This document shows, piece by piece, positions 3,161 through 38,323 of a stretch of 64,000 nucleotides of DNA. A model generated the notes under the pieces. The model worked only from the letters and a program-made list of their open reading frames with translations. It was not told the DNA's origin and searched no databases. The stretch lies in contig CAYTYR010000003.1 of assembly GCA_964441745.1 (NCBI GenBank), positions 35,348-99,347 on the forward strand, in the 5' to 3' direction. A program made the position numbers and the translations under genes. Position 1 is the first letter of the stretch, and each line of letters opens with the position of its first letter. The stretch comes from an uncultured Clostridia bacterium (GTDB taxonomy: Bacteria > CAYTYR01 > UBA6262).

Positions 3161-3203
3161 TGGAGTTTTGGAAAAAGCATTTTATTAAGATTTTCACCTT
3201 AAC

Positions 3204-3233
3204 TTAAAACTCAACACTCAAAATTCAAAACTG
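3204..3233. repeat. REP-like intergenic palindromic element, copy 1 (AAAACTCAACAYTCAAAATTCAAAACTG)
   Basis: near-identical to 52666-52695; inverse-related to 55453-55475 and 52563-52578. Confidence 0.5.
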
Positions 3234-3241
3234 CATCTATG

Positions 3242-3628: not shown

Positions 3629-3639
3629 TTATTATCTCC

Positions 3640-12504: not shown

Positions 12505-12528
12505 CCTAAAAATACATATTAAAAATAA

Positions 12529-12563
12529 AAAGGAGCAGGATTTTCCCCTGCTCCTTTTTTATT
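12529..12563. terminator. bidirectional rho-independent terminator between convergent genes
   Basis: AGGAGCAGG-ATTTTCC-CCTGCTCCT hairpin followed by TTTTTTATT; A-run on the other side. Confidence 0.65.
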
Positions 12564-12634
12564 ATTTTACCATTTTCCACTTCCTGTCCCCCCTGCCAGT
12601 TATGCTTAGCAGAACTAGGGGGGATACCACTCTA

Positions 12635-14638: not shown

Positions 14639-14716
14639 CGTCTCTCTCCTTATAAGTGATGATATTGATCATAACTATATTACCATAAATCCTGAATTTT
14701 AAGAATACCTAAAGAT

Positions 14717-14747
14717 AAACCCTGCATTATATTATAATGCAGGGTTT
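14717..14747 (-). terminator. hairpin 3' of the RRM gene (candidate terminator)
   Basis: perfect inverted repeat AAACCCTGCATTATA / TATAATGCAGGGTTT; U-rich tract on minus strand is weak. Confidence 0.45.
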
Positions 14748-14810
14748 AGTTGTTATTATTATTTATCTCAAGCGCTTACCCTTCGACTTCGCTCAGGGTT
14801 GCTGGCGCAA

Positions 14811-15158
14811 TTACCATCTCTTCCCGCCGCCACCGCCGCCGTAGCCGCCTCTGCCGCCGCCACCGCCGTAGCCGCCTCTGCCGCCACCACCATGTCTTCC
14901 ACCGCCGCCGCCTTCAGTCTTGGGGCGAGCTTCGTTGACATTCAGGTTCCGGCCTTTCAAGTCCTTGCCGTTCAAACCGGCAATAGCTGCCGTGCCTTCT
15001 TCTTTAGTCGGCATTTCTACAAAACCAAATCCTCTTGATTCACCGCTGAATTTATCCTTGATTATGGCGGCAGTAGCTACCTGCCCATAAGCAGCAAAGG
15101 CTTGTTTGAGATCCTCTTCAGTTACATCTCTTGACAGGTTCCCTACGTAAATGTTCAT
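14811..15158 (-). CDS. RRM-type RNA-binding protein with Gly-rich tail
   Basis: 115 aa; RNP2 IYVGNL and RNP1 RGFGFVEM; C-terminal GGGGRGGYGGG tail encoded by a 30-bp tandem duplication. Confidence 0.85.
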   Translation of the reverse strand: MNIYVGNLSRDVTEEDLKQAFAAYGQVATAAIIKDKFSGESRGFGFVEMPTKEEGTAAIAGLNGKDLKGRNLNVNEARPKTEGGGGGRHGGGGRGGYGGGGGRGGYGGGGGGKRW

Positions 15159-15267
15159 TCTTACTCCTTTTCTTTCGATTTACCCCGTTAGAAAACTTTT
15201 CTAACCGGGTTTACTTGCTTATATTTTATTCTAAACCTCTAGTCTGTAAATTGCAAGCAAAATAATA

Positions 15268-17856: not shown

Positions 17857-17884
17857 TTTTACTGCTCCAACCTTATAAGTATCT

Positions 17885-20535
17885 CTACAATAAATCTTCC
17901 ACTTTAGTCACCACTTTATACTCAACATCCTTAAATTCCTTAAAATGGGCTTCCCCGCACTTGATCTTCATTCTCTCTTCCGGATATAATTCATTCATTT
18001 CCCGGGTTGATTTCGTCTCCGCCACGAAATACAGCTTCTTCTCCCCTTTAAAGATCAAGGCCCAATCGGGGTTATAACTGCCCAAGGGCGTCTTTATCTT
18101 GAACCAGGCAGGGAGTTTTATGTAGAACTCAACATTATCGTTAGTCTCGCAATCACTGGCGAACCGTTTTTCCGGTTCGCTCATTGAATCTATAGAAATA
18201 TAATTAGCTATAGTTTTATCCTGCTTTGATACTTGATAGAGATTCTTTCTATATGCCTCCACCTCATTGTCTTCGAATAATCTCATCTCATATTCAATAC
18301 CATTGATCTTTTCATATTTTATCCCATCCACAATCATTTCGGCTAAGACATTCTTTATCTCCGCTGTCGCCATATCCATGAACATTTGAGGATTTCTCAA
18401 GATATCAACCAGCCGGCCAGAGCCTTTCAATATCCGCAAGATCGTTGATCGGGTTAATTCGGTTCTCGATTGTATATATCCCAGCACATCCGGGACATCA
18501 AACAAAGGATTTTCAACCTGAGTTATTCCCACACCCTTCTGCACTCCGGTTAATCCTTCTCTGACGACCTGCATTCCCGTTTTAACATACTTAATGATCG
18601 GCTTGCGCACCGCAGGCATATTCTTTATCTCTTTGACCGACGCTTCTATAAGCTTTTCAGTATCGAAATCAATATTATAAGTTGTTTTATGTTTTATTTT
18701 GTCCCATAGCTCCTTAAACTTCTCATCAAACTGGTAATTTTTTCTTAACCGCACTTTCACCCTTTCGTTCTTATTTCTTATCCTCTCCTTGAATTCGACT
18801 CCGCAATCCTCTTCCATTTCTTTCTGTAACTCTGCAGCGAATTCCTCGTAACTTTCATTGGCAATAACCGTCAACCTGTTAGTGTTCTTATCCTGGATCC
18901 TGTCGCCTTGCTGATCCACGCAAAGCCGCAATCCCCTGCCAATTTCCTGCCTCTTTTTCATCTCGGATCTCGTCTCGTTCAGAGTGCATATCTGGAAGAC
19001 ATTGGGGCTATCCCAGCCTTCTCTTAAAGCAGAATGACTGAATATAAATCTTAGAGGATTATTAATATCGAGAAGTCGTTCTTTATCCTTCATTATCAAC
19101 CTGTATGTATCATCATCTGCCAGGGTTTCCCTGGATTCAGAAGAATCTTTAAAGATCCCTTTTTTGTCCTGCGCGAAATAGCCGTTATGAACGACTTCAG
19201 ATTGAAAAGGGATAACTCCCTGATATTCTTTTTTCCCCGCTATTTCCTTGAATATTTCTTCAAACCAGAGGGCAAATTTTCCTTTCGCAGGGTTCCCCGC
19301 CTCATCATAACTGCGGTAGTTGGCTACCCTGTCTATAAAGATAAGCGAAAGGACTTTTATTCCTTTTTCTTTATATTTTTTCTCTTTCTGGAAGTGTTCT
19401 TCCACAGTCTTCCTGATCTGGACCTTCATAACTTCATCCAGCAGGCCGCCCCTCTGCTCTCCAACCGCCAGTATCTCTCCATTGGAGAGCTCAACCTTGC
19501 CTTCCCCCACGTCTATGGCATTAATAATATATCCTTCCCGGTAAAGCTCTCTTTTATTTGATTTTTCATACAAGTCATCTCCAACCTCAACATTCACTGT
19601 TTTCCTGATTATTCCATTCTCGCCAAGGGTATCCAAGCTTATTTTTGCCAGAGTCTTTGTTTTCTTGGCCTTAATATCTTCAACCTTCAGAAAAGCCTGA
19701 TTACTGCTATTCTCGGCAAAAATTGAATCAACTTCTATCTGTTTGACTAATCCCAGATCATAAGCTTTGACAGGATTAAGGCTGTAAACAAGGTTATACA
19801 GATTTGCGTGAGTAGCAGAATAGCGGAGAGTGCAGGCAGGATTCAGATTATCTATGGCCTTTTTCCTTATTTCCGTTTCCATGTTCTGAGGTTCATCAAC
19901 AATGACTATGGGATTCGTCGCCTGTATGAATTCTATCGGTTTCTTCCCGGTTAGTTTATCATTAAACTTATTAATAACATTCACGTCCTTGGCAAATGAA
20001 TCAATATTGATGACCAATATCTGAATGTTATTGTTTAGAGCGAAATTCCTTAAAAGGGATATTTTCCCCGGATCATACACGTTGAATGTCGCCGGTTGTT
20101 TCTCATACAAAGACTGGAAATGGTCATGGGTTATCTCAAGGTTCTTAATAACTCCTTCTCTTATGGCGATGCTGGGGACTACGATTATAAACTTTTTGAA
20201 TCCATAGCGTTTATTAAGCTCATATATGGTCCGCAAATATACATAAGTCTTTCCTGTACCTGTCTCCATTTCCACTGAGAAATTAAGACCTTGCAGGTAT
20301 TCCGCTTCTTTGAGCCCATTTTTCCGCTGAATTGCCTGAAGATTTGCTAATATTTGCGCTTCTTCCAAAACTATCCCATTTCCAACACCGTTTTCAGACA
20401 GCATATAGCCGCTATTGGGAGACAAAGAAAATTCATAATCGCTCTTATTTAAAGGCTGCCCCTCGAACAGGTCAACTATGGAGTTAATAGCGTCTATCTG
20501 ATACTGCTGGTTTGGATCAAAATGGAGTTTCATTA
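17885..20535 (-). CDS. res: Type III restriction enzyme, Res subunit (helicase-nuclease)
   Basis: Walker A METGTGKTYVY, motif II VIVDEPQNM, C-terminal nuclease region; real start is ATG at 20533-20535 (MKLHFDPNQQYQ) with AAGGA SD, not the upstream in-frame start at 20668. Confidence 0.9.
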
Positions 20536-20543
20536 TTATCCTT

Positions 20544-21275
20544 CTATTTAAACATCCGCAGATAATCTTTCTGTGTTTCCCTGACCATACGGGCAATAAG
20601 ATCAACAAAATCCCGATCGTTTCCGTCTCGCGCTGTTTCCAAAGAAGCGATATATTCCTGCCTGACAATGGGCGGGATTATGGTTATAACATAACCTTCC
20701 TGCATTAAAATAGTGTTCATCAGCAGCCGCGCCACTCTGCCGTTACCATCCAGGAAAGGATGAATAAAAACAAATTCTTTATGAGCCAATGCCGCGAACT
20801 CCACCGGGTGTTTTTGCCGGCGCAGTCTGCCTAATTTTGGCGGCAATCGTTTCATCAACACTGGTAATTCCGCCGGTAAGGGCAAGGGATACTTGGAACC
20901 TGTAATAATAGCTCTTACCTTCCGATACTCACCGGCATTTTCCCGATCTATTCGATAATAGAAAAGCCGGTGCAAATCTTTTATCCCGCGTTCGGTTACG
21001 GTTTTTTTCCTGGCCAGTTCATACATAAAGTCATAGGCTTCGCTATGCCCGGCTGCTTCGTAATGATCTCTTAATGGTTTACCGCCAATGGTAATACCGT
21101 CTTCAATAACCACCTTAGTCTCAGATTCTGTTAAGGAATTACCTTCAAGAGCGTTACTGGCATAGGTTAACCCTATGCGGAAATATTCTTTTGTTTGCTC
21201 TAACAAATGCTTATCCAAAGGCCGGCGCTTGTTTATCTCTGCCTGTAATTTATCTATTTCCTGATAAATAGTCAT
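20544..21275 (-). CDS. fic: Fic family protein
   Basis: 243 aa; canonical Fic motif HPFLDGNGRVARLL; AAGGAG SD 7 nt upstream; stop is 9 nt before the res ATG. Confidence 0.85.
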   Translation of the reverse strand: MTIYQEIDKLQAEINKRRPLDKHLLEQTKEYFRIGLTYASNALEGNSLTESETKVVIEDGITIGGKPLRDHYEAAGHSEAYDFMYELARKKTVTERGIKDLHRLFYYRIDRENAGEYRKVRAIITGSKYPLPLPAELPVLMKRLPPKLGRLRRQKHPVEFAALAHKEFVFIHPFLDGNGRVARLLMNTILMQEGYVITIIPPIVRQEYIASLETARDGNDRDFVDLIARMVRETQKDYLRMFK

Positions 21276-21288
21276 TACTTAGCTCCTT

Positions 21289-21336
21289 TCAAAGCTCTAT
21301 CTGATACTGCTGGTTTGGGTCAAAATGGAGTTTCAT
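21289..21336 (-). repeat. R2: duplicated copy of res 5' end forming a 15-codon mini-ORF (MKLHFDPNQQYQIEL)
   Basis: ATGAAACTCCATTTTGACCCAAACCAGCAGTATCAGATAG matches the real res start (20497-20535) with one mismatch by eye, then diverges into the Fic RBS. Confidence 0.7.
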
Positions 21337-21369
21337 TATTTATTTCTCCAACTATTTCCAATATTCTTA

Positions 21370-21398
21370 TTGACATCATGGCGCCAATGCTGTAATAT
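21370..21398 (+). promoter_or_regulatory. consensus-like sigma70 promoter (TTGACA-17 bp-TAATAT)
   Basis: TTGACA at 21370-21375, 17-bp spacer, TAATAT at 21393-21398, in a 400-bp noncoding gap and pointing antisense to the RM operon. Confidence 0.5.
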
Positions 21399-21404
21399 TA
21401 TATT

Positions 21405-21550
21405 AGGCAATAATGCTAATAATTTTGGATCGGGGTGTCCCCGGTCGGTATTAATGAGCGGTAAGTCCGTTGTGAATTGTTCCAAGTGTTCCCTTCCATA
21501 GGTTGGCTATAGCTTGGACGCAACAAGTTCACAGGGCGCGCTCATTTTTT
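21405..21550 (+). ncRNA. candidate structured small RNA of about 145 nt, antisense to the Type III RM operon
   Basis: downstream of the promoter; local hairpin GATCGGGG-TGT-CCCCGGTC (21427-21446); long-range pairing AATGAGCG (21452-21459) with CGCTCATT (21538-21545) followed by T-run 21545-21550; only coding potential is a 15-aa ORF without SD. Confidence 0.35.
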
Positions 21551-21672
21551 ATTTTATGGCAATTTTGCCTTCATTACCCTTCCCATCACATGACCATCAC
21601 ATAAGATTTGCTTTATTTATCAACACATTTTGCCATTTAACAAATTCACACAAACTTACAATCACATAAACC

Positions 21673-23130
21673 TTAAGACCATATTGGTATATACTTAGCA
21701 TACTTTCTCGATTTATTCTCTGGATCAAAATCTTTAATTAATCTTGCTTTGATGGTATCAGCTATTATTCTTGAAACTATTGAGTAATTCTTTTCATCTA
21801 TTTTAAATCTTTCTCTTAGAGACTGATTGGTCATGTTACTATTTGAGACATATTTTAAGCAACAATGTTGATAACATGCTCTTATTTTATCATCTTTATC
21901 CATCTGCTTTAGAGTTTTATAAGAATACATAATAACCTTCAGAAAATTATCTCCCTCAATGAATTTCGGCGCAGGTAATTGATACTCCTCTACTTTATCA
22001 ATAACTTTATCAATACCGCTCCCTCTTTCTTCACAAATACCTGCCCTCCGCATAAAAGAAGCAACTTTCTCATTTCTTGACTGAGGATGATGGTCAATAA
22101 ACCTTAAAGTGCTAATTAACGGCTTTCCCGGATTAGTAATTTCAATTCTATCGTTAAATATTTCAATCATAGGCCCAGTGCCAATTTCATTAAAATCCTG
22201 ATGGATTAATGCATTGGCTACTAATTCTCTTATTGCTATTTCAGGATACATTTTTACTTCTTTTCTAAATGCTCTTCCTATTTCTTCATTTGCTTGCAAG
22301 TTATCATTAATATAATCAATTAATCCCTCAAATCCATTGGCATATCCTTTAGCCCCAATTTGTTCTTTTTTTGTATGTAATCTGTCATTACCCTTATATA
22401 TAATAACCCTGATTGCCTTCCTATTTAATCTTTCAAAATACGAAAGATTATTGGCTATCAAAATAGTGCCCAAATTAGTAATACTATGGCTATTTATTTC
22501 TTTAAGAATAAATCTTTCTCCTTCTAAATGTTTTAAAATAGCACTTTTATCAGCGGGTAAATTCGACTTCAATATCCTAAAATAACCTGGATAATCTAAT
22601 AATTCAAGTATTTTATCTTCATCCAATTCTTTCGCGGCTATGTCTTTTTCAAAACTATACGCTAGTGTTTTATTCCATATTTTTCTCGCTTTTTCTGGCA
22701 AGTCCTTTAATTTCTTTTTATAACTGCCAACTCTAATATACTCTGCCCCTTTAAAACCTACTGGCGTATTATGAGTAGCATTGATTTCAAACATTACAAC
22801 AGGAACCCCTTCATACTCAAATTCATTAATTCTGAAATCAATTCTCGGACTTAGCAATCTAATTAACCAATTTTCTAATTCCTCATTACCGTTTTTTGTT
22901 TGGCTAGGCTTAAAATCTGTACCAACTACTTTATGGGTCTGATCTTCAATGCCAAAAACAAAATATCCATAGCTTCTATTATGTAAGCAAGCTGAATTAG
23001 ATAAAGCAGATATATACTCCCCAATTTCATCAAGTGAGCAACTTAAATTTTGCTTGAATTCCACCCACTCTGTTTCCTTTGGCAGCATTATAAGTTCTTT
23101 TAATTTATTCTTAAGATCATCTGTGTTCAT
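21673..23130 (-). CDS. AlbA_2 (Schlafen-like) plus HATPase_c_4 domain protein, putative nucleic-acid-binding ATPase/regulator
   Basis: 485 aa; N-terminal ETEWVEFKQ...FVFGIEDQTHKVVG resembles AlbA_2; C-terminal ALIHQDF...IEIFNDRIEITNPG resembles HATPase_c_4; start overlaps R1 mini-ORF stop (ATGA). Confidence 0.65.
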   Translation of the reverse strand: MNTDDLKNKLKELIMLPKETEWVEFKQNLSCSLDEIGEYISALSNSACLHNRSYGYFVFGIEDQTHKVVGTDFKPSQTKNGNEELENWLIRLLSPRIDFRINEFEYEGVPVVMFEINATHNTPVGFKGAEYIRVGSYKKKLKDLPEKARKIWNKTLAYSFEKDIAAKELDEDKILELLDYPGYFRILKSNLPADKSAILKHLEGERFILKEINSHSITNLGTILIANNLSYFERLNRKAIRVIIYKGNDRLHTKKEQIGAKGYANGFEGLIDYINDNLQANEEIGRAFRKEVKMYPEIAIRELVANALIHQDFNEIGTGPMIEIFNDRIEITNPGKPLISTLRFIDHHPQSRNEKVASFMRRAGICEERGSGIDKVIDKVEEYQLPAPKFIEGDNFLKVIMYSYKTLKQMDKDDKIRACYQHCCLKYVSNSNMTNQSLRERFKIDEKNYSIVSRIIADTIKARLIKDFDPENKSRKYAKYIPIWS

Positions 23131-23180
23131 TTTATTTCCTTTGATAGATATCGCTGGTTCGGATCAAAATGGAGCTTCAT
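23127..23180 (-). repeat. R1: diverged copy of res 5' end forming a 17-codon mini-ORF (MKLHFDPNQRYLSKEIK)
   Basis: ATGAAGCTCCATTTTGATCCGAACCAGCGATATCTATC resembles res start; its TGA overlaps the ATG of the 485-aa ORF. Confidence 0.65.
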
Positions 23181-23200
23181 GAAGCAGCCATATATTTTCC

Positions 23201-25084
23201 TTATATGGTTCTGAATTCTATTCCTGCGTCTTTCATTTGCAGGACGGTATTTGTTTTAAGCTTGTCATTGCCGGCAAATAAGGAATCCAGGCACAGGCAT
23301 TTGGCAGGCTTTTGTTTGACTATTTCCTTGATCAGCTTGCTGTTTACCTCAGATAGAATAACAACCATTTCGCCGTTATTTACCGTATAAATCGGCGCAC
23401 CGTCTATTTTTTCTTCTTTCGCGACCGTATTCAGGCCGTAACCGGTTTTCAGAAGTATTTCCCATAGCATATTGGTTTGTTTTGCCTTAGGTTTAACCGG
23501 ATACTCAAAAGCATCCATCTGCTTCTTAAGTTCAGCTTCCTCTGTTATGACATCATTTCGCCAAATCTTAAAATTGGATAGCTTCAGCTTATATACTTTG
23601 AATCCCAGGTCTATTTCTTTAGGCCGCTCTTCCTTGCCTATCTGTTTAATTGCTCTGCGAATTCTTTCTTTGGCGATATCTGCTATGGTTTTATACCCGG
23701 CCTTATAAGCTTCTGTTTCTGCTTCAGTTTTTTCCGGAAGCTGGACGCAGATAAACTTTCTATTCCCCCCATCTTCCTTGTTTAAATCTAAAACAGCATG
23801 AGCAATAGTTCCGGACCCAGCAAAAAAATCAAGAATAATATCATCAGATTCAATACCGGTTATTAATTCTATTAGTTTTTTCATTAATCTTACAGGTTTA
23901 GGTGTATCAAAATACGATTCACCATTAAAAATTTCTTTAATCTCTCGTTTTGACTCCTGATTATCTCCAACTATATCTCTTGTCCATAGAGTTATGGGAG
24001 TAACTGAAGTTTTTACCTCTGATAAAAATCTTTTTTGTCTCGGAATATTGTCTCCATACTCTCCAAACCATATACGATTATCTTTTAGAAGCTCACTAAA
24101 TTTTCTCTCACTAACAACCCAACATCTTCCTTTTGTCGGAAAAACTTTCCTTCCGCTTGGTAAAATTATGGGATATAGTTTTTCCTTGATTTCTGGCCCC
24201 ACCGTTAAATCACCTGATGACCAAGGGCCTCTTAAATCATTATCAGGATTATGATATCTTGAATTAGTTTCTTCTGTTCTTTTTAACCCCAGCACACCTA
24301 GTTTTTCTACATTTTTTGCATAAACTAAAATATAATCATGACTCGTTGAAAATGTGGTTTTTAAATTAATGGGCGAAAATGCTTTCTCCCAAATTATACT
24401 TGCCACAAAATTCTCTTCTCCGAATATCTCATTCATTAACAGCCTGAGATTATGGACTTCATTGTCATCTATGGAAACAAAAATAACTCCGTCTTCACAG
24501 AGCAGATTTCTGGCGAGGAACAGTCTTGGATACATCATGGAAAGCCAATTGGAATGGAAATGGCCATTTTCTTTGTTATTTTTTCTAAATAGCCCTTCCT
24601 TCAACAGATAGCCTTCTTCGTCCTTTTCCCCTATTCTTTTCAGATAGTCTTCTTTGGACTCGGAAAACCGGTCAGGATAGATAAAATTGTCATTGCCGGT
24701 ATTGTAGGGCGGATCGATATAGATCATCTTGATCTTGCCATAGTAGGCTTTCTGCAGGACTTTCAAGACTTCGAGGTTTTCCCCTTCAATGAATACATTG
24801 CCTGTTTTATCAAAATTGACGGATTCTTCAGGGCAAGGAGCCAATGTAGCAGTTGTAGGAGTTTGCAGGACCTTAAAAGCTTCGGACTTACCGGCCCAAT
24901 TAAGGACATATCGCTCATTCTCCAGGGATAGCTCTTCACCTAAAGTAAGCTTGAGCTTCTCCTGATCTATTTTCCCTTCGCTGAATACCTCTGGAAAAAG
25001 TTCTTTTAGTTTCTTTACTTTATCCTTTTTCACATCTACCGATTTTCCATCCATTCCTGTCTCCTCTATTACAAACTTATTCAA
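23201..25084 (-). CDS. mod: Type III R-M Mod subunit, N6-adenine DNA methyltransferase
   Basis: 627 aa; DPPY motif in MIYIDPPYNTG; AdoMet-binding DFFAGSGT; overlaps upstream Fic gene by 8 nt. Confidence 0.9.
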   Translation of the reverse strand: MNKFVIEETGMDGKSVDVKKDKVKKLKELFPEVFSEGKIDQEKLKLTLGEELSLENERYVLNWAGKSEAFKVLQTPTTATLAPCPEESVNFDKTGNVFIEGENLEVLKVLQKAYYGKIKMIYIDPPYNTGNDNFIYPDRFSESKEDYLKRIGEKDEEGYLLKEGLFRKNNKENGHFHSNWLSMMYPRLFLARNLLCEDGVIFVSIDDNEVHNLRLLMNEIFGEENFVASIIWEKAFSPINLKTTFSTSHDYILVYAKNVEKLGVLGLKRTEETNSRYHNPDNDLRGPWSSGDLTVGPEIKEKLYPIILPSGRKVFPTKGRCWVVSERKFSELLKDNRIWFGEYGDNIPRQKRFLSEVKTSVTPITLWTRDIVGDNQESKREIKEIFNGESYFDTPKPVRLMKKLIELITGIESDDIILDFFAGSGTIAHAVLDLNKEDGGNRKFICVQLPEKTEAETEAYKAGYKTIADIAKERIRRAIKQIGKEERPKEIDLGFKVYKLKLSNFKIWRNDVITEEAELKKQMDAFEYPVKPKAKQTNMLWEILLKTGYGLNTVAKEEKIDGAPIYTVNNGEMVVILSEVNSKLIKEIVKQKPAKCLCLDSLFAGNDKLKTNTVLQMKDAGIEFRTI

Positions 25085-26198
25085 AAAGTTTCACATAACC
25101 TTGATAAGCATATACTCGGTTTCTCCTTTGCCCCGTTAATTCTTTTAAAATATCTAATTTAAGCAGTTTTTTAGTCAAGACAATAGCATTGGGATTGGCT
25201 AATCCTGTTATTTGTTCAATATCTTTTATTCTTACCAAGGGCTTTTTATATAATGCGTTAAGCAAAACCATAGCTTTTTCTGAGCGGCCCATGCTTACCA
25301 CTTTCTCTATATCCCTCTGCCTCAGCTTATGGATTTTTCTGGCAGTTTCTACCGCTCTCTCGGCAGTGTCGATTACTCCTGATAGGAAAAATATAAGCCA
25401 TCCTTCAAGATCATCTTTCTCCCGAGCGGTATCAAGCTTATCATAGTAATCTTGCCTGAAACGCTTAAAAAACTCTGATATACACAAAAGTGGTTTATGG
25501 AGAATCTTCTGCTGGCATAAATAAAAAGTAATGAGCAATCTCCCAATTCTGCCGTTTCCATCCAGAAAAGGATGTATCGTTTCAAACTGGTAATGTATTA
25601 ATCCAATTTTAATAAGTACTGGCAAAGGCGCCACATCATGTATAAAACTCTCTAAATTTCCCATTAAGGCTAATACTTCATGCGCTGGGGGTGGAACAAA
25701 AGAGGCGTTTTGCAAAGTCACTCCCCCTATCCAATTCTGGGAGGTTCGAAATTCACCCGGATATTTTCCTTCTCCTCTGACTCCTTTTAGGAGAATGGCA
25801 TGTATTTCTTTAATGAGCCGCAAGGAAAGAGGAAGTGTTTCAAGGCGTTCCAGCCCGTAATCCATAGCTTTTATATAATTCAATATTTCTTCAACATCTT
25901 TATGTATTTCAAAATCTTCCAATTTTGCTTCTGCTTTGAGAACATCAGAAAAAGTAGCTTTGGTGCCTTCTATTTGACTGGAAAGAGCCGCCTCCTTCTT
26001 TATATACATAAAAATAAAGAAATTAACATCTGGCAATACATCAGCAATCCCATCCAATCGACCTAAAGCCAGATCCGCTTTCGAAAGAAGATCCTGCAAT
26101 AAATAATCTTGCTTAATATTAAAAGGCAAGCGGTTAGGTATAAAAGCCTTATATTGCAAATCTCCTTTTAACTGATTAACATAATTCCCTGTTCTCAT
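25077..26198 (-). CDS. fic: Fic family protein with C-terminal winged-helix-like domain
   Basis: 373 aa; Fic motif HPFLDGNGRIGRLL; first gene of the RM operon. Confidence 0.85.
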   Translation of the reverse strand: MRTGNYVNQLKGDLQYKAFIPNRLPFNIKQDYLLQDLLSKADLALGRLDGIADVLPDVNFFIFMYIKKEAALSSQIEGTKATFSDVLKAEAKLEDFEIHKDVEEILNYIKAMDYGLERLETLPLSLRLIKEIHAILLKGVRGEGKYPGEFRTSQNWIGGVTLQNASFVPPPAHEVLALMGNLESFIHDVAPLPVLIKIGLIHYQFETIHPFLDGNGRIGRLLITFYLCQQKILHKPLLCISEFFKRFRQDYYDKLDTAREKDDLEGWLIFFLSGVIDTAERAVETARKIHKLRQRDIEKVVSMGRSEKAMVLLNALYKKPLVRIKDIEQITGLANPNAIVLTKKLLKLDILKELTGQRRNRVYAYQGYVKLFE

Positions 26199-29852: not shown

Positions 29853-30641
29853 TTATTTTTTCTTTTTTCTTTTCATTAACCGAGGGGTCCTGCCTGAACC
29901 GGCTTTTTCATCAAGCTCGATACCGAACATTTCGACTGCGTCCAAATCAGCAATCACCCGCCCGGTCTTTTTATCCGCTTTCTTCAGCATCTTCTTTGAT
30001 TTATCCCGCAAAGCTTCCGTAATCAGATCATCCATTTCGGTTTTACGCAGTAAGAAAAATAGCTTGGGATCATCATCCAATTTTACTCCCACCCCATAAA
30101 GCGTGGCCGCTACATGCTTGCACATACTTGCCCAGTCCGGGCAACTGCAGCTAAACTTAATCTCTTTAGGCGCCGGAAACAACCCCTTCCCTTTGGCGGT
30201 AAACAATTCCATAAGATCCTGGGGAAACCGGCCTTCAATAAGCTCTTGTAAAGATTCGATTTTCCCGGCGCATTTTTTCTTAATATCGTGCCAGGCTTCT
30301 TTGTTCAACGGATTTATTTTTACCGCTACTTTATAAGGATGCGGGCTGGTACCCTGCACCACTGCCGTTACTTCGCCCGGGTTTATTTTAAAATCCAAAA
30401 CAAAACCGTTTCTAACGTAACTGCGGCCCCGGCCGATCCGGTTTGAATAATCCGCATACTTTTCCAGGTTTGCATTCCAGGCTTTGCCCCACCAGGTATG
30501 GGCCAGTTTGTTCCCCTTTAAAATCAAAGGGTTGATCTGAGGATTTTTCTTCTTTAGCTGCGCTAATTTCCGCTGCGCCTTCGCGCATTTTTCTCCAACC
30601 GAAACATACCGGGGAAATCCTGAATAACCATAGTATCCCAT
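29853..30641 (-). CDS. SWIM zinc-finger protein
   Basis: 262 aa; CxC...CxH signature CSCPDWASMCKHV; 23 nt downstream of SNF2 helicase. Confidence 0.8.
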   Translation of the reverse strand: MGYYGYSGFPRYVSVGEKCAKAQRKLAQLKKKNPQINPLILKGNKLAHTWWGKAWNANLEKYADYSNRIGRGRSYVRNGFVLDFKINPGEVTAVVQGTSPHPYKVAVKINPLNKEAWHDIKKKCAGKIESLQELIEGRFPQDLMELFTAKGKGLFPAPKEIKFSCSCPDWASMCKHVAATLYGVGVKLDDDPKLFFLLRKTEMDDLITEALRDKSKKMLKKADKKTGRVIADLDAVEMFGIELDEKAGSGRTPRLMKRKKKK

Positions 30642-30664
30642 AAGCTTATCCTCCTGAAATTATT

Positions 30665-33340
30665 TTACAGCGACAGGGTAAACAGGTTCATTAATTTATC
30701 ATTGTTCATTTCGGTTATCCAGGCCTCGTTTGAGCTTTGGATGATTTCGTTTGACAAGTGTGTTTTTTCCTCAAGCATGGCGTCAATCTTTTCTTCCAGT
30801 GTGCCTCTGGTGATAAACTTATGCACCAGAACATTTTTTTTCTGGCCTATCCGGAAGGCTCGATCGGTGGCCTGGTTTTCCACTGCCGGATTCCACCACC
30901 GGTCAAAATGAATAACCTGGCTTGCCGCGGTCAGATTTAAACCGACTCCCCCGGCCTTAAGCGATAATACCATAAAAGGAACATATTCATGACTTTGAAA
31001 CTTTTCTACGATTTCCCGGCGTTTTTTAACCGGCGTACCGCCGTGGAGGACCAAACCCTGATGCTTAAAGATTGTTTCCAGATATTCCTTGAGCGGTCCG
31101 GTAATTTCCTTGAATTGCGTAAATACTAAAACCTTCTCTCTTTTTTCATAAATTGTTTCACAAATTTCGCGCAACCGCTGAAATTTGCCGCTGTCCGGTT
31201 CGCCATATTCATTCCTGCCCAAATATTGATCCGGATGATTGCAAAGCTGTTTAAACTTCATCAACGAAGCCAGAATCAGTCCTTTGCGCTTAATCCCCCC
31301 GGGTTCCTCTTCCAGCGCGGCTTTTAGTTCCGCCACAAGATTACCGTAAAGAACAACTTGTTTTTTGCTTAAATCCGCGTAAGTTTTCATCTCGACTTTC
31401 TCCGGCAGATCGGAAATAACAGACTTATCGGTTTTCAATCTTCTTAAAAGAAACGGCGCCGTAATTTTCTTCAGCCTGGCGTAACCGCCTGGATGGTCTT
31501 TTAATTCCTTAGAAAAATCGGAAAATTCTTTGCTGCTGCCGAGCATCCCGGGATTTAAAAAATCAAATAACGACCAAAGATCGCCTAAATTGTTTTCAAT
31601 CGGCGTGCCGGTCATAATTATTCTATTGTTGGCCTGCAAATTTTTAACTGCTTTGGTTTGTTTTGTGCCGGGATTTTTAATGGCTTGCGCTTCATCTAAA
31701 ATAACATAATTCCATTTGCGCGCTTTAAGCCAATCATACCTTTTGATTAAAGCATAAGTTGTTATAATAAGATCGTATTTGCCGCTAAAATCCTTGTCCC
31801 GACCGGCCTCGCCGCTATTTTTCTCAAACGAAGGATGAGCGATATAATACCTAATCTCCGGCGAAAATCGGCCTATTTCGCTAATCCAGTTAGAAATCAG
31901 GGAAGCGGGTATGATCAGCAGGCTGGCCGGATTTTGCCTGCTTGTTTTCAGCGTATTTAAGAAAGCCAACAGTTGTATTGTTTTCCCCAGCCCCATATCG
32001 TCGGCCAGACAGGCGCCAAACTGCAAAGAATGCAGGAAATAAAGCCAGTTCAACCCTTTCTGCTGGTACGGCCGAAGTTCTGCCAGAAAGTTTTTGGCGG
32101 GAGTGATTGAATCAATCAGCTCAGGTTTGCGCAGTTTTTCCACCACCCCTTTAAGCCATTCCCCGTTGGAAATACCGGCAGTCTCTCCATCGCTAACCCC
32201 CAGTTCTTTTTGTAAATTAAGCTGCAGATACATGGCCTCTTTTAAAGTTAAAGCGCCTTGTTCCATCAATTGTTGCGCTTTTTTATAGGCTTCCAGAGTT
32301 TTTTCGAGTTTTTCCGGGTCCACCTCCACCCATTTCCCCTTAATAAACGCCAGCCCGGCTGATTCATTTAAAAGTTTTCTTGCCTCCTCTTCCGACAGCT
32401 CGCTGTCGCCGCATAAAAGTTGTGTATTAAAATCAAGCAGCGAATCCTGGCCGAGAAACGACGGCGCTATATTGCCGATCCTGATATCCAGCTTTAGAAC
32501 ACTTGTTCTGTTCTTCCACCAGTTGGGAATCCGGCAAAGTATGCCGGATTTTTCATAGAGAGGAATTTCCTTTAAAATATCATAGGCGTCTTTGGCCGAC
32601 AAGGCCAGCGGATGAAATATTTCCCCGTTTTCAATAAGCCCGGCAATGATCCGGCTGTCTTTGGCGGCTAAATAAACAGTGGCCAAAAGTTCCAGCAGTT
32701 TTTTGTTGTTTTTGCCGTATTCGGTTAAGGCATACTTTAAGGGAATATGCTTGGCTTTCCCCTGCTCGTTTAAGCCGGTAGAATAGGTGGCTAAAAAAGC
32801 AAAAGGAAACTCCTCTTTTTTACTTTCCACCAAATGAAAATAAACCCGTCCGGCCAGATGAACATCAGCGCTGAAAGTTTTAATAAAATCAGCAACGGAG
32901 CCTCTATAAGTTTTCACTTTATGGCTAAAGGTAAGGTTTAGCTTTGACCAAATATCTTTCAGAAAAGACGGGTTTACATACTCTGCCCCAACCATAAATG
33001 GCCGCCGGGACAGAAAATCGTCAATCTCGTCAGTCGTTAAAACAAGCTCTACCCGCTCGCGCAAACCCTCAAGATCGGGTGTTTGCGCTAATTTTTTTAC
33101 ATACCTCTCCCCTAACTTTCTAAAAAATTCCAAACTTGCCGCTAACGGCACGGCTTGATTGCAAAATCCCAGCAACAGGAGAAAAGAGCCAAAGTCTTCC
33201 CGGTAGCTTTTGTATAATTCATTTTGCAGCAATTCCTGATCCTTGTTTAGCGGCTCTGCCCTGTCCTGCCATTCCAGTTCAATACTCTGACCCGGTAAAC
33301 AAACAACTGTTAATTCTTTATTCATTTTCTTTTTCCTCAT
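30665..33340 (-). CDS. SNF2-family helicase/ATPase
   Basis: 891 aa; motif I LADDMGLGKT, motif II DEAQAIKN, SNF2 block GTPIENNLGDLWSLFDF, C-terminal helicase domain. Confidence 0.85.
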   Translation of the reverse strand: MRKKKMNKELTVVCLPGQSIELEWQDRAEPLNKDQELLQNELYKSYREDFGSFLLLLGFCNQAVPLAASLEFFRKLGERYVKKLAQTPDLEGLRERVELVLTTDEIDDFLSRRPFMVGAEYVNPSFLKDIWSKLNLTFSHKVKTYRGSVADFIKTFSADVHLAGRVYFHLVESKKEEFPFAFLATYSTGLNEQGKAKHIPLKYALTEYGKNNKKLLELLATVYLAAKDSRIIAGLIENGEIFHPLALSAKDAYDILKEIPLYEKSGILCRIPNWWKNRTSVLKLDIRIGNIAPSFLGQDSLLDFNTQLLCGDSELSEEEARKLLNESAGLAFIKGKWVEVDPEKLEKTLEAYKKAQQLMEQGALTLKEAMYLQLNLQKELGVSDGETAGISNGEWLKGVVEKLRKPELIDSITPAKNFLAELRPYQQKGLNWLYFLHSLQFGACLADDMGLGKTIQLLAFLNTLKTSRQNPASLLIIPASLISNWISEIGRFSPEIRYYIAHPSFEKNSGEAGRDKDFSGKYDLIITTYALIKRYDWLKARKWNYVILDEAQAIKNPGTKQTKAVKNLQANNRIIMTGTPIENNLGDLWSLFDFLNPGMLGSSKEFSDFSKELKDHPGGYARLKKITAPFLLRRLKTDKSVISDLPEKVEMKTYADLSKKQVVLYGNLVAELKAALEEEPGGIKRKGLILASLMKFKQLCNHPDQYLGRNEYGEPDSGKFQRLREICETIYEKREKVLVFTQFKEITGPLKEYLETIFKHQGLVLHGGTPVKKRREIVEKFQSHEYVPFMVLSLKAGGVGLNLTAASQVIHFDRWWNPAVENQATDRAFRIGQKKNVLVHKFITRGTLEEKIDAMLEEKTHLSNEIIQSSNEAWITEMNNDKLMNLFTLSL

Positions 33341-33456
33341 ATTTGATCTGTTCCATGTTGTTTATTCATATCCGGACACCAGCGTGGACCCAGCATGACC
33401 TATATATCCACATATTCTCAACCGATTCTCAACCGCGTAGGTTGAGGATTGGTTAT

Positions 33457-34602
33457 TCAAACTTCACCTGCATTGCTTACTATCTTGAAATCAACCCCCA
33501 GTTCTTCAAAATGTTTTTTCCCGCAGTGAACTTTATCCGCTTCGTCCGGGCGCAATTTGGCAAGGTCGGCAAATGCCTTTGTTTCCCTTACCAAATACAA
33601 CGTTTGATCACCCTGCTTAACGATTGCCCAATCCGGATTATATGTCCCCAGCGGCGTGGTTACCTTAAACCAGTCCGGCAGCTTAACAAATAATTTAATA
33701 TCCTCACGGCTATCTAAGGCCTGCGCAAAGCGGCGCTCAACGTCAGAATCAAACTCAACCGCATCATAGACCGATTTACCAACGTCCACCTAGAACAGAA
33801 GCCACCTCGATACATTTGACCAACCGCATATCGTATGCTTTGACCGGATCCAACTTATATAGAAGGTTATACGGATTCACATGCGTAGCGGAATAACGAA
33901 GCGTACATAAAGGATTTAATGTTTCGATCGCTTCCTTGGCTTTGTCGGTGTTGTCAACGCTCTGCGGCTCATCGATAATCACAATCGGATGCGTCGCTTG
34001 AATAAACTCGATCGGCTTACGCCCGGAAAAACGATCGTTTTCCCTATGGATAACATTACTCTTCTTCTCATCATCCTTGTCCTCAAGCGTCTTGATTACT
34101 CGTAGCAAACTGCCGTACCTGACTGACCTTCTTGGAATCATACACAAAATAATCGAACGCCACGTTATTGTATAAATGTAAAAAGTGGTCGCGCGTAATA
34201 TCAATGTTTTTGAGAACACCCTCCCGGATAGCAACACTGGGAACAACGATAACAAATTTCTTAAAGCCGTATTTCTTGTTCAGCTCGAAAATAGATCGCA
34301 AATAAACATACGTCTTGCCGGTGCCGGTTTCCATTTCCACAGAAAAATGCCTCCCCTGCAAGACGCCAACCTTCTCAATCTCGTCTTTCTCCTGAATCTT
34401 CCAAACGTTATCCAGAAGCTTCTCATTATCCAGCACAAGGCTATTTCCAACGCCCAACTCTCGAAGCTCAAGAAGCCCGTAAGCTGTAGTAAAACTAACC
34501 TCAAAGTCCGCTCCCGGTCAAAGGCTGGCCGTCAAATACGCTGACCACAGCATTAACGGCATTAAGTTGATATTGTTGATTGGGGTCAAATTTTAATTTC
34601 AT
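33457..34602 (-). pseudogene. res: decayed Type III res gene (frameshifts plus large internal deletion)
   Basis: three ORF fragments in different frames match res 17885-20535: N-terminus MKLKFDPNQQYQL then stop after 33 codons, Walker A METGTGKTYVY fragment, DEPQ fragment, C-terminal nuclease fragment; about 1.1 kb versus 2.65 kb for the intact gene. Confidence 0.8.
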
Positions 34603-35591
34603 TTCTTCTTTCTTCCATTCCCAATCTGTTTAACAATTTTGTCAAAATCACTAATATAATCCTTACCTCTCTCTTTTCTGTAAATTTCGAATTCTTCTCC
34701 GGCCTTTTGAGCGGCTTGTTCGGCGCTTATGCTTCCGGCGTCAGCAAGAAGTTTCCGCTCGCTTAATTTCAAAAATTGATCCAGTTTTTCCACCCAATCC
34801 GCCATCTTCATCAGCCTGCCATTGGTTGCCTGCAATTCCGCAAAATCAAGATACATTGATACAATCAGATTAAGCTGGTTTAGCTCTTTTTCAGAAAGAT
34901 AGTTTTTCGCGATTTTAACATCTTGCGAAGTAATATAATTACCTTTAAAACTGGTAAGCCCCATTAATGGTTTTTGACTATCCGCGCGTTTTACTACAAT
35001 TTCCGCCGCGGTATGGCCGTGAACCGCGTAATGCATTTTATTCTGCACAGTAGCGAAAAACTCTTTAGTAAGATTATCGTCTTTGCGGTAATCAACGCTG
35101 GTAGCGTAAATATCGGTAACTTTCTGGTAAAAATTGCGCTCACTGCTTCGAATATCGCGAATACGCTGCAATAGTTCCTGAAAATACCGCGCTTTCTGCC
35201 CGCCCTGTTTTAATCGCTCATCGTCCAATGTAAACCCCTTGACGATATACTCTTTCAGGCGCTGAGTCGCCCAAATTCTAAATTGCGTTCCGCGAACCGA
35301 CTTGACCCTATACCCAACCGAAATAATGACATCTAAATTATAGCAATTTGTCGGTTTGGTAGAAAATTCGGAATTCCCGAATTTTCTCATCGTCTCCCCC
35401 TTCATAAGCTCTTTTTCTTCATAAATATTTTTTATGTGTTCATTGATTGTGGATTTTGATTTTTCAAACAACTCGGACATCTGATCCTGCGTAAGCCAAA
35501 CGGTTTCATCTTCTATCTTTACCTGAAGCCTTGCCTGCCCGTCTTCAGTTTCGTAAATGGTTATTTTTGCATCCTCAACAGGTTTTTTCAT
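34599..35591 (-). CDS. rhuM: RhuM-family protein inserted between mod and res of the decayed RM locus
   Basis: 330 aa; IYETEDGQARLQVKIEDETVWLTQDQMSELF and SVGYRVKSVRGTQFRIWATQRLKEYIVKGF are characteristic RhuM blocks; stop overlaps res2 ATG (ATGA). Confidence 0.75.
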   Translation of the reverse strand: MKKPVEDAKITIYETEDGQARLQVKIEDETVWLTQDQMSELFEKSKSTINEHIKNIYEEKELMKGETMRKFGNSEFSTKPTNCYNLDVIISVGYRVKSVRGTQFRIWATQRLKEYIVKGFTLDDERLKQGGQKARYFQELLQRIRDIRSSERNFYQKVTDIYATSVDYRKDDNLTKEFFATVQNKMHYAVHGHTAAEIVVKRADSQKPLMGLTSFKGNYITSQDVKIAKNYLSEKELNQLNLIVSMYLDFAELQATNGRLMKMADWVEKLDQFLKLSERKLLADAGSISAEQAAQKAGEEFEIYRKERGKDYISDFDKIVKQIGNGRKKK

Positions 35592-35641
35592 TAATAATCC
35601 CCTCTTTCTCTAACCCAACAGCTAAAGAATTACCGGCATTT

Positions 35642-37563
35642 CTACACCGTCCTAAAATCCTCGACGCCTTTTGATTTCATAATCTGAACAGCATTTGTTT
35701 TCAGCTGATCATTACCGGCAAAACCCTGATCCAAACAAATAACCCTACTGGGCGTTTTTTCAGCCATGGCTTTGATAACTTCTTTGGTCAATTCTTTCTC
35801 CAAACAAATCAGCATCAGCCCACCCTCGATGGAATAAATCGTCTTCCCGGCCATAATGGCTTTTTCGATCTTAGTCGTTAACTCAAATCCCGCCTTTAAG
35901 AGCAGTTCAAAAAGAATGTCCTCTTGCGAACTCTTAGGATTAATATGATCTACATGCATTACAAGTTGCTTCTCAACTATCTCTTTCTGCGCGTCAATAT
36001 CTCCTTCCCAAACCTTAAAAGTAGATTTGGCCAATTTGAAAACCTTAAACCCGAGAGCATTATTACTTAGCAAACTCACCTGAGATCCCGGCTCTTGTAA
36101 AGTTTTAATAATTTTCCTTAGACGCTCTTTACCAATATCGGCTATCGTCTTGAAATCATCTTTTCTGTTTTATCATCGAGAAGCTCTGGGAGTTGTATAC
36201 ATATAAATTTTCTTCCGATGTTATCCTGACGGTTCATTTCAAGAACGGCATGCCCAGTCGTTGCAGATCCAGCAAAGAAATCCAACACATAATCATCTTT
36301 ACCTACGCCCGAGATCGACATCAAATGAGCGATTAATTCAAAAGGCTTAGAAAAAGGAAAATCTATTCCAATTTTAATCAACGCCTTAGATCCGCACGAA
36401 TTTGTAAAAGATTTGTTATCAAACAAGGTATTAGGACGCAACCCCTTTTCTAGTCGCTCATTCAAATAAAGTTTTGTGTATACGTTCCAATTCGCTTGCT
36501 TCCCTTTTTGATCTAACAACGGCGACGTTTTGGTTTTCTTAAAAACAACTCGATTATCTGAAAGGTTCTTTTTGAACGTTTCTTCTGTCCATCTAAATAC
36601 TTTTCCGGCCGGGGGAATCACCTTTGTCCCATCCTGACATTCAATGTAATACCTTTGATTCGGACGCAAGTCTAAACTCGGCATGTATAGCGAAACTTCG
36701 TTGTACTTACCTCTCTTATCTTCGAATTTAAAAAGGCTGACATAATCTTCGTCCGCTTGCGCAGACCGATCAGTGAATTCAGGAAGACTGGATATATGTT
36801 TTGCATACGATAAAATATAATCACACGATGGTGAAAAGTGCGTCCCCTTGTTTGAGGTTAACTTGGACACTCGAGTTACAACATCCAATGCGTTCTCCTC
36901 GCCAAATATTTCATCGCACATTTTTCTTAAATGTGAAAACTCTCCATCGCCAATGCTAATAAAGATTATTCCATCTTCGCGTAATAAATTTCTCGCTAAA
37001 TACAACCGTGGATACATCATATTGAGCCATTTAGTATGGAAACGGCCACTATCTTCTGTATTGGTCGAAAAACGCCTCCCCTCATCATCCATCTGCCCTG
37101 TGTATTTCAAATATGTTTCCAAATTCTCAGCGTAATCGTCAGGATAAATAAAATCACTTCCGGTATTGTATGGCGGATCGATGTAGATCATCTTTATCTT
37201 GCCATAATACGATTTCTGCAAAAGCTTTAAAACCTCAAGGTTATCGCCTTCAATAAACAAATTCTCTGTTGTATCAAAGTTAATAGATTCATCTTTAACC
37301 GGAACAAGCGTTGCAACGCTCGGAGCCTGAATATTCTTGAAACAATCCGCTTTTCCCGGCCAATTCATCCCAAAACGTTCTCGACCAACGTCTGTATTTT
37401 CACCAATTACCACCCGTAATTTATCAATATCTATTTTTAGCCCTTCTGTGAAAACCTCGGGAAACGCCTGCTTTAATTGCCGTAATTTATCTTCCGGGAT
37501 ATTCATGGATTTCAAATCAGCTTTTTTAACTTCCGACATACTATTTTCTCCTTTTAAGATCAA
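35642..37563 (-). pseudogene. mod: Type III mod methyltransferase disrupted by a frameshift
   Basis: N-terminal ORF 36142-37563 (IYIDPPYNTG, DFFAGSATTG) and C-terminal ORF 35642-36079 both align to mod 23201-25084; frame breaks near 36140-36150 at an A-rich tract. Confidence 0.75.
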
Positions 37564-38323
37564 ACCACTTCCCAGCGAATCATAAATAGTGTTTCTTCGT
37601 TAATCCGGGGCTTTAATTTCTTTTCAATCTCATCTATAAGACCGTCCTTTTTATTTTCGATCACTTTAGCTTCCTGCTCATATGCCCGCCACGCGGCATC
37701 CCGCTTGGTTTCGAGTTGACGACGATCTTTCTCCAGCTTGAGTTTCTCCGGTAAATTGGACGCAAGCCGCGACCGCTTCCTTAATTGCGTTTGCAATCTT
37801 GCTTGATGGTTTATAAACATTGCGAAGACGGTGCGCCTCATCGATCACAATTAAATCCCATTGTATCTTTTTGATATAAACATCCATCTTCCGGGCAAAC
37901 TGATACGAACAGATAACAACCTTCCCCTGTTCAAAAGGATTCAAATTACCTTTTTTGATTTCCTGATTAAAATGACGCATTCTCAAGAATAGCGGACGAG
38001 AGAAAAAACTTATCAAGCAATTCCTGATTCCACTGTTTCCTAAGATTGGATGGAACAATAATGAGAATCTTTCGTTTGCGCTCAGCCCACTTCTGGGAAA
38101 TAACCAAGCCAGCCTCAATCGTTTTTCCCAAACCAACCTCATCAGCAAGAATTGCCCCTTTGGACAATGGCGACCGAAAAGCAAACAATGCGGCTTCTAC
38201 CTGATGAGGATTAAGATCAACCTGTGCGTCCGCTAAAGACGCGGCAAGCTTCTGGATGCTGTCTGATGCGCTCCGCTTGGTTAATTCATAAGCAAAATAT
38301 TTAGCGTGATATTCTGTTAACAT
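37560..38323 (-). pseudogene. remnant of a second SNF2/DEAD-like helicase gene
   Basis: three overlapping ORFs in different frames carry helicase motif I (ADEVGLGKT) and motif II (DEAHRLRN); far too short for a helicase. Confidence 0.55.

Follow-up and report, generated by a model that had tools for sequence, protein, structure and literature searches.

What becomes of a gene nested in a restriction operon when the operon itself falls apart? The question is raised by a locus in a stretch of 64,000 nucleotides (nt) from an uncultured Clostridia bacterium (assembly GCA_964441745.1, contig CAYTYR010000003.1), here called the window, in which an intact gene of the RhuM family, rhuM, sits between the broken methylation gene (mod2) and the broken restriction gene (res2) of a Type III restriction-modification (R-M) system. 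We refer to this arrangement as locus 2, and to an intact Type III system elsewhere in the window, with the genes mod1 and res1, as locus 1. An earlier sequence-only reading had described locus 2 as a second Type III locus with a nested gene, now decaying, and Pfam matches and comparison with an intact relative bear this out. The same reading had proposed either that the nested cargo is the selected unit and the R-M genes are dispensable, or that locus 2 is a cargo donor for exchange with locus 1. Our analysis indicates that locus 2 is probably the remnant of a horizontally acquired helicase-mod-res module, that the rhuM gene inserted into it is probably self-sufficient, and that selection probably keeps rhuM while the host operon decays.

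Open reading frames (ORFs) and Pfam matches define four collinear genes on the minus strand between 38323 and 33457. The features, including the spacer that precedes rhuM, are as follows (L091 is the intact relative described below; aa, amino acids).

38323..37563, minus strand: SNF2-helicase remnant, the first gene of the module, a DrmD-like pseudogene of 761 bp (SNF2-rel_dom, E 6.2e-09)
35642..37539, minus strand: mod2, Type III Mod pseudogene with its ATG at 37539, its stop at 35642-35644 and one 1-nt deletion
35592..35641, minus strand: spacer between mod2 and rhuM with the purine-rich ribosome-binding stretch GAGAAAGAGGGG; the 5' part of a 1,035-bp insertion relative to L091
34599..35591 (coding 35591..34602), minus strand: rhuM, intact, 330 aa, 993 bp, matching Pfam PF13310 and PADLOC PDC-S05
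33457..34602, minus strand: res2, Type III Res pseudogene of 1,146 bp, its ATG overlapping the rhuM stop

The helicase remnant consists of the N-terminal 118 codons, a +1 frameshift, an internal deletion and the C-terminal ~75 codons, and it ends 21 nt before the mod2 ATG. The range given for the locus in the sequence-only reading, 33457-37563, takes in the rest of the locus but leaves out this helicase remnant of the same module. The N-terminal part of mod2 matches N6_N4_Mtase (PF01555) with E 2.7e-29; the truncated product is 465 aa long, has the Pfam domain at residues 115-449 (model positions 1-210 of 221) and would retain a complete methyltransferase domain. For res2, which had been described as about 1.1 kb with several frame breaks, tblastn finds four pieces matching Res in three frames; the fragments match ResIII in the N-terminal part (E 2.9e-10) and RE_endonuc in the C-terminal domain (E 5.8e-39), and the recognisable ends are 84-98% identical to the Res of L091. 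Between them rhuM is intact, as had been claimed, with a full PF13310 match, and its stop TGA and the res2 ATG do overlap as ATGA, at 34602-34599. With the features of Mod and Res present and their reading frames broken, locus 2 is the remnant of a Type III R-M system and not a working member of that class.

The course of the decay could be reconstructed against L091, which was found by a search with the N-terminal part of mod2; lesions are given as the window relative to L091, by blastn and tblastn. Across one frame change, mod2 is 93% and 90% identical at the amino acid level to the intact 632-aa Mod of L091 (P0121). The gene order in L091 is HTH_17, SNF2 helicase (961 aa), Mod (632 aa), Res (966 aa) and then a Gabija-resembling pair; mod and res overlap by 4 nt (ATGA), with no cargo between them. 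By blastn, the window becomes homologous to L091 9 nt upstream of the helicase ATG and ceases to be so at the res stop codon, which marks helicase, mod and res together as the transferred unit. Within these limits, blastn aligned positions 7086-7648 and 9754 onwards of L091 in the helicase gene and 11896-12748 and 14463-14794 in res, while tblastn of the L091 helicase against the window recovered residues 1-118 (98% identity), 100-185 (78%) and 887-961 (91%) in three frames. Six lesions separate the window from L091, and every one is an indel, with zero nonsense substitutions:

~37972, minus strand: helicase, +1 nt
37769-37786, minus strand: helicase, 2,105-nt deletion between two copies of GAAGAAGCAGTC
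~36161-36164 (placement ambiguous within 36160..36175), minus strand: mod2, -1 nt in the short A run of GAAAAGAT
~34510, minus strand: res2, +1 nt
~34094, minus strand: res2, 38-nt deletion
~33790, minus strand: res2, 1,714-nt deletion with ~5-nt microhomology, removing about 560 codons

The element GAAGAAGCAGTC is a direct repeat of ~12-16 nt that is present in the intact relative L091, and the two blastn alignments overlap by 18 nt. The 2.1-kb and the 1.7-kb deletions are, by their junctions, microhomology-mediated. The mod2 frameshift, located by comparison with the same position in L091 and in a second relative, L096, leads to a stop at 36142-36144; the sequence-only reading was right that mod2 carries a frameshift, but the place it gave, 36140-36150, is that of the resulting stop and not of the indel. 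In sum, res has three lesions, the helicase two, mod one (the late frameshift) and rhuM none, a distribution that would fit the usual order of decay of restriction systems, in which methylation outlasts cutting. The breaks recur in Logan assemblies made from two independent runs (SRR13007709 and SRR13007705), which match the window at 100% identity along 14.7 kb and 3.2 kb; both Logan contigs encode the exact RhuM protein and include the frame breaks, which the sequence-only reading had allowed might be assembly errors. Locus 2 is free of simple-sequence repeats and of homopolymers of 7 or more bases; within mod2 there is no tandem repeat and no simple-sequence repeat of 4 or more units, the frameshift lying in an A run of 4 nt. 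Matching assemblies and the lack of repeat tracts together make base-calling error and phase variation unlikely.

How rhuM came to lie in this operon is suggested by the same comparison. Together with a 46-nt leader, rhuM forms a 1,035-bp insertion (35637..34603) exactly at the mod/res overlap of L091. It has what defines an embedded gene: it lies between mod2 and res2, on their strand, and is missing from that junction in L091. The second relative, L096, whose Mod is 91% identical, carries at the same mod/res point a gene for a 170-aa GNAT-like acetyltransferase (a weak Pfam match), and this gene likewise ends as ATGA on the res start. Since mod and res already overlap in L091, and since rhuM and the L096 cargo occupy the same point, the ATGA would be an ancestral mod/res coupling signal that was adopted by the inserted gene. 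An intact relative with the full order helicase-mod-rhuM-res was not found. In a Planctomycetales metagenome-assembled genome (L033, 821-10093), the first 118 helicase residues are 80% identical to the window remnant, and the order is helicase, rhuM, a small ORF, a split mod and res, with rhuM nested at the helicase/mod junction instead of at mod/res; the helicase and mod of L033 look fragmented too.

The best 119 RhuM homologues, 76-94% identical, come from Omnitrophota, Nitrospirota, Planctomycetota, Elusimicrobiota, Acidobacteriota and other phyla, and the nearest (94% at the amino acid level, 91% at the nucleotide level) lies on four contigs (L003-L006), one of them Omnitrophica WOR_2 RIFOXYA2_FULL_45_12. 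On these contigs the mod and res genes are gone. Upstream of rhuM remain the last 19 mod codons (a 57-nt stub) and the same spacer, which is ~90% conserved between the window and L003-L006; downstream remain the first 30 res codons (90 nt) in L004-L006 and the first 4 (12 nt) in L003. In the L003-L006 lineage, on the evidence of these stubs, the host genes of the same mod-rhuM-res arrangement have thus been lost completely. In L003, a PMT_2 glycosyltransferase ORF (2703-3914) starts with the res ATG and the first four res codons (MKLK) and overlaps the rhuM stop by 4 nt; the glycosyltransferase gene is, to all appearances, a gene fusion that reuses the old coupling signal. The homology of the res stubs is lost (L004 ~2746, L005 ~5067, L006 ~2874) within ~3 nt of the site of the window +1 lesion at ~34510, at res codon 31, whether by chance, through an older lesion common to both or at a local hotspot. 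Among more distant rhuM copies, mod/res stubs are missing: at 85-89% identity the contexts are Type I R-M systems, defence islands and housekeeping neighbourhoods.

Could rhuM work without the system that hosts it? RhuM matches PF13310 (Virulence_RhuM) with E 3.2e-110 and 367.8 bits (cut-off 33.7) over model positions 17-248 of 252, and the PADLOC model PDC-S05 (PDLC04853) with E 4.5e-141, residues 6-326 aligning to model positions 4-328 of 336; there is no RhuM model in NCBIfam. On E. coli B carrying a single-gene PDC-S05 system that contains a Virulence_RhuM domain, T7 and T5 plated about 1000-fold less well and T4 about 10-fold less well (10.1101/2024.09.26.614923). The rhuM sequences also differ in the manner of a maintained gene, with a ratio of non-synonymous to synonymous change (dN/dS, or omega) of 0.08 against L004 (dS 0.34) and a pairwise range of 0.07-0.12; on the window branch, 23 synonymous and 3 non-synonymous changes have accumulated since the split from the nearest relative.

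The rival that survives best holds that the whole island decays neutrally and that rhuM, equally unused, is intact only because it has not been hit yet. Two numbers favour it. Six random lesions over the 7,686 bp of host genes and the 993 bp of rhuM would all miss rhuM with a chance of 0.48, and the decay is very recent. In a three-way comparison of mod from the window, L091 and L096, the window branch carries 96.5 synonymous and 8.5 non-synonymous changes (omega 0.023), against higher omega values of 0.054 and 0.060 in the intact lineages, and the res remnants give an omega of 0.028 against L091. Values of 0.02-0.03 in remnants indicate that nearly all divergence predates inactivation and leave hardly any time since then. 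With such a probability and an elapsed time too short for point mutations, the intactness of rhuM in the window alone proves no selection, and the decay is too young to have tested the gene. Disrupted or shortened rhuM copies also exist elsewhere (L045, split into 237 + 80 aa; L032, 267 aa), and the untranslated stretch upstream may compromise rhuM transcription. Against neutral decay, relatives with a 94% identical RhuM have lost mod and res, yet their rhuM differences are mainly synonymous; the family is strongly conserved across phyla and on viral contigs; and a RhuM homologue acts alone. We consider neutral decay of rhuM together with its host unlikely.

Selection on a self-sufficient rhuM, the reading that we prefer, has further points to contend with, which we gather here with the young decay, the chance of 0.48 and the disrupted copies as weighing against it. 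The loci that keep rhuM were found by a rhuM-anchored search, which is an ascertainment bias. The PDC-S05 protein that was tested stems from another organism than the window RhuM, whose activity would be expected by analogy. For L091, the choice between an ancestral and a secondary lack of cargo comes down to parsimony only. In a scan for promoters and terminators, counts were no higher than in shuffled sequence. For the protein itself, searches by sequence or profile found no solved RhuM relative in the Protein Data Bank (PDB), and the AlphaFold model, built on a shallow set of 49 homologues (76-100% identical), has a mean predicted local distance difference test (pLDDT) score of 47.7. The proposal that the cargo is selected and the R-M genes are dispensable accordingly holds in part: the PDC-S05 match, the lone defending homologue, the dN/dS of 0.08 and the stubs of L003-L006 speak for it, while the intact state of the gene in the window does not add to it.

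The RhuM family offers a hint of how such a protein might be built. A protein encoded on L005 (34-1026) shares the N-terminal ~130-220 residues of RhuM (34% identity, E 8e-36) and carries a Fic domain in place of the C-terminal half of RhuM, which shows, as far as alignment can, that more than one kind of effector half is joined to the N-terminal module of RhuM. The gene for this fusion adjoins a further Fic gene and lies 3 kb from the L005 rhuM copy. PADLOC models for PDC-S23 match RhuM residues 7-165 only. Invariant residues of RhuM include those of its SSERNFYQK and HxxxHG stretches. In the AlphaFold model only residues ~30-100 are confident (pLDDT ~80), with a strand-helix pattern compatible with a winged helix, and the best Foldseek matches in the PDB are DNA binders (DdrC and MarR-family proteins) with low TM-scores, which is a hint only. 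From the L005 fusion, the PDC-S23 match and the partial model comes a two-part reading, in which RhuM might combine an N-terminal nucleic-acid-binding or sensing module with an exchangeable effector half.

If rhuM is self-sufficient and kept by selection, the history of locus 2 could have run as follows. A three-gene defence module (DrmD-like SNF2 helicase, Type III Mod and Res) would have been acquired horizontally, and rhuM, a single-gene defence candidate, would have inserted exactly at its translationally coupled mod/res junction, taking over the ATGA. Six indels, namely the 2.1-kb, 1.7-kb and 38-nt deletions and three single-base indels, have since inactivated the module, recently and without hitting rhuM. 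The gene presumably works without the restriction enzyme, through a winged-helix-like N-terminal domain and a helical C-terminal effector half that may have been swapped for a Fic domain in relatives. Selection would retain rhuM as its host operon decays, a process that would already be complete in the nearest relatives.

It is also conceivable that RhuM is a guard of the kind known from PrrC in EcoprrI, a toxin checked by the Type III complex or reporting on it; with Res and the helicase gone it would be either silenced or switched on for good, and the decay would have altered its function. PrrC itself, an anticodon nuclease with ABC-ATPase and HEPN domains, is kept masked by the enzyme that hosts it. 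RhuM is nested in R-M operons at the place that DOC/Fic toxins and PrrC-like nucleases also take, its family often shows a tight coupling to res, a toxin role in multilevel defence has been proposed (PMC3710099), and such logic is discussed for embedded systems by Payne et al. (10.1101/2024.01.29.577857). The surroundings of rhuM speak otherwise. In a rhuM-anchored survey of 80 species-level genomes, the gene was found in four Type III loci (L016, L034, L086 and L089) and between helicase and mod in L033; in at least 15 Type I loci; beside MmeI-type, EcoRI-methylase, GmrSD and Mrr genes; and often among housekeeping genes without an R-M system. Partners so varied, or absent, argue against a specific protein partner for RhuM. 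Moreover, PDC-S05 protected E. coli as a single gene, and a Pfam scan found no ABC-ATPase or HEPN domain in RhuM. A guard function is on these grounds improbable. RhuM homologues are also present on 27 IMG/VR viral contigs (L180-L206; best 78% identical), which are a possible vehicle for the spread of rhuM at high identity.

The sequence-only reading had also pointed to the same architecture occurring twice in 20 kb. The second occurrence is locus 1:

17885..26198, minus strand: locus 1, intact, with a Fic gene (SoFic-like), mod1, an SLFN_AlbA_2/HATPase_c_4 gene, a second Fic gene (PDC-S04-like) and res1; separate from the decaying module

PADLOC matches in locus 1 are SoFic (E 1.5e-119), MTase_III for mod1 (E 5.8e-216) and REase_III (E 2.1e-301). 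The shared layout is real, and a survey anchored on Mod makes it unremarkable. Of 80 metagenomic loci of this Mod family, 59 included the end of mod as well as the start of res, and in 26 of these 59 (44%) the two genes are at least 0.5 kb apart; of the 38 ORFs called there in the 26 loci, 36 are co-oriented with mod and res, and several cargo genes end on the res start in the ATGA fashion. The Pfam and PADLOC matches of the cargo include SLFN_AlbA_2/HATPase_c_4 (the most frequent, with 6), DUF1016, Bro-N, SMODS/SLATT, GmrSD, OLD-TOPRIM, SIR2/HerA, HigB and Fic, so that the matched ORFs belong mostly to defence-type families; direct tblastn found RhuM after mod in 5 metagenomic loci. With cargo this common, two cargo-bearing Type III loci with such cargo types in one genome are to be expected.

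That locus 2 might be a reservoir that swaps cargo with locus 1 through conserved mod 3' and res 5' ends, as the sequence-only reading had suggested, is very improbable. The pairwise alignments that the reading called for gave amino acid identities of 39-44% between mod1 and mod2 and of 41-64% between res1 and res2, and the two loci are old paralogues, not recent copies. The Mod C terminus and the Res N terminus are conserved at the protein level in both loci. For recombination, the minimum for RecA-dependent exchange is ~20-25 nt, and the longest identical DNA tract common to both loci is 14 nt; blastn detects no similarity between the loci in the mod 3' and res 5' arms that flank the cargo. 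So short a tract and such dissimilar arms make recombinational swapping between the loci unlikely, and no hybrid locus occurs among the relatives examined. The reservoir reading can also call upon a sign in locus 1 that this genome does recombine at res starts: there the 5'-terminal 45 nt of res1 occur in three direct copies.

20493-20537, minus strand: true res1 start
21296-21340, minus strand: repeat copy (98%) just upstream of the second Fic gene
23140-23184, minus strand: repeat copy (73%) just downstream of mod1

The two extra copies form leader ORFs of 15-17 codons, one of which terminates in an ATGA overlap with the SLFN/AlbA_2 start; the repeats look like the product of serial cargo insertion at the res start. 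As a general insertion scar, res-5' direct repeats had to be rejected: they are absent from 33 other cargo-bearing loci (including L016, L034, L086, L089, L096, L097 and the 26 metagenomic loci), and serial insertion at the res start is consequently not a general mechanism. The closest Mod homologue of locus 1 is only 66% identical, which makes the history of this locus untraceable. A match to the Rfam DUF3800-V RNA (RF02964; 21451-21548, plus strand; 71.5 bits, gathering score 37.4) lies antisense to the operon in the 335 non-coding nt that separate the SLFN/AlbA_2 gene from the second Fic gene, with no DUF3800 gene nearby.

Taking the three res1 5'-end copies around the cargo of locus 1 and the glycosyltransferase of L003 as an example of fusion, one may picture the mod/res junction as a docking platform for single-gene defence cassettes, something like an integron without an integrase. 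Cassettes would insert serially at the res start, inherit the ATGA and, once the host operon decays, depart with short stubs of mod 3' and res 5' sequence, which would travel with them as expression signals and could seed new operon fusions. We regard this picture as rather doubtful.

Least credible is that the frame breaks are artefacts or reversible phase variation and that the restriction system functions: the mod2 lesion is one base in an A run, where A-AAG could allow rare -1 slippage and so bring back the reading frame, but we rejected assembly or base-calling error, as three assemblies agree base for base, and a phase-variable Type III mod (phasevarion), as mod2 has neither a long repeat nor a long homopolymer, and neither process can account for the kilobase and 38-nt deletions.

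Two neighbourhoods deserve a brief description. Between the res2 stop and the next gene of the window, a short spacer contains a perfect tandem repeat of two 11-nt units, ATTCTCAACCG (33414-33435). Directly downstream of locus 2, on the minus strand (29853-33340), follow a gene for an intact 891-aa SNF2 helicase (DUF3670 + SNF2 + Helicase_C), with strong PADLOC matches to ZorD/DpdE-type helicases and no other Zorya or Dpd genes seen, and one for a protein of 262 aa that matches the SWIM zinc finger weakly (E 0.0032; 17.4 bits; gathering score 19.6). In L091, positions 14814-21899 form a defence island with the Gabija-resembling pair (by domain content an OLD-TOPRIM ATPase and a UvrD-type helicase), a DUF2130 protein, a PIF1 helicase and an AIPR protein.

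What does locus 2 add to the picture of nested defence genes? L091 (intact), L096 (other cargo), the window (half-decayed host with rhuM) and L003-L006 (stubs only) form a natural series, which suggests, as read from these sequences, that a guest gene can outlive its host operon. According to Payne et al., what nesting means biologically "remains to be explored" (10.1101/2024.01.29.577857). The Type III mod/res junction, which is not named as a host in the accessible part of that source, seems to receive insertions often (26 of 59 loci), and the genes nested there could be mined for further defence candidates. Locus 2 is otherwise a fairly ordinary further example of a nested defence gene; the gain is incremental and leaves the known picture unchanged.

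Among the systems with which locus 2 may be compared, Type III systems of the EcoP15I/EcoP1I type are alike in having mod upstream of res with overlapping stop and start, an N6_N4_Mtase Mod, and a Res with ResIII and a C-terminal endonuclease; locus 2 differs in the co-transferred SNF2 helicase upstream, in the nested rhuM and in that all three system genes are pseudogenes. The helicase recalls Class 1 DISARM (DrmD + DrmMI + DrmABC), as the L091 helicase is most similar to DrmD (PADLOC, E 1e-214) and stands beside an adenine methyltransferase. However, its NCBIfam score for DrmD_b (NF038318), 717 bits, is below the cut-off of 950, its partners are a Type III Mod and Res, and DrmA, DrmB (DUF1998) and DrmC were found neither in L091 nor in the window; we therefore did not assign the module to DISARM. 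With PrrC in EcoprrI (Type Ic), locus 2 shares a second-line effector gene nested in a restriction operon, whereas RhuM has neither of the two PrrC domains, occurs with many hosts or none, and has a homologue that acts alone.

Anantharaman et al. (2013) described RhuM-like genes in R-M operons, where they take the position of DOC and are often fused to DOC, and proposed that they encode a toxin (PMC3710099). The window and L005 conform to this description, with RhuM in the DOC/Fic position (locus 2 compared with locus 1) and a RhuM-Fic fusion (L005). The joint multilevel defence proposed there contrasts with the loss of the R-M partner here and in L003-L006, a loss that points to autonomy of RhuM. 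Closest are the "embedded" defence genes formalised by Payne et al., from which the PDC candidates were derived; the hosts described in the accessible part of that work are Hma, BREX, DISARM and Type I R-M, and systems with pseudogenes were excluded (10.1101/2024.01.29.577857). Like these, rhuM is a co-oriented single gene inside a known defence system, and RhuM has its own entry among the PADLOC candidates, PDC-S05. Set against what that part of the source describes, the kind of nested gene is already known; here the host is a Type III system with a DrmD-like helicase, caught in decay with its guest intact.

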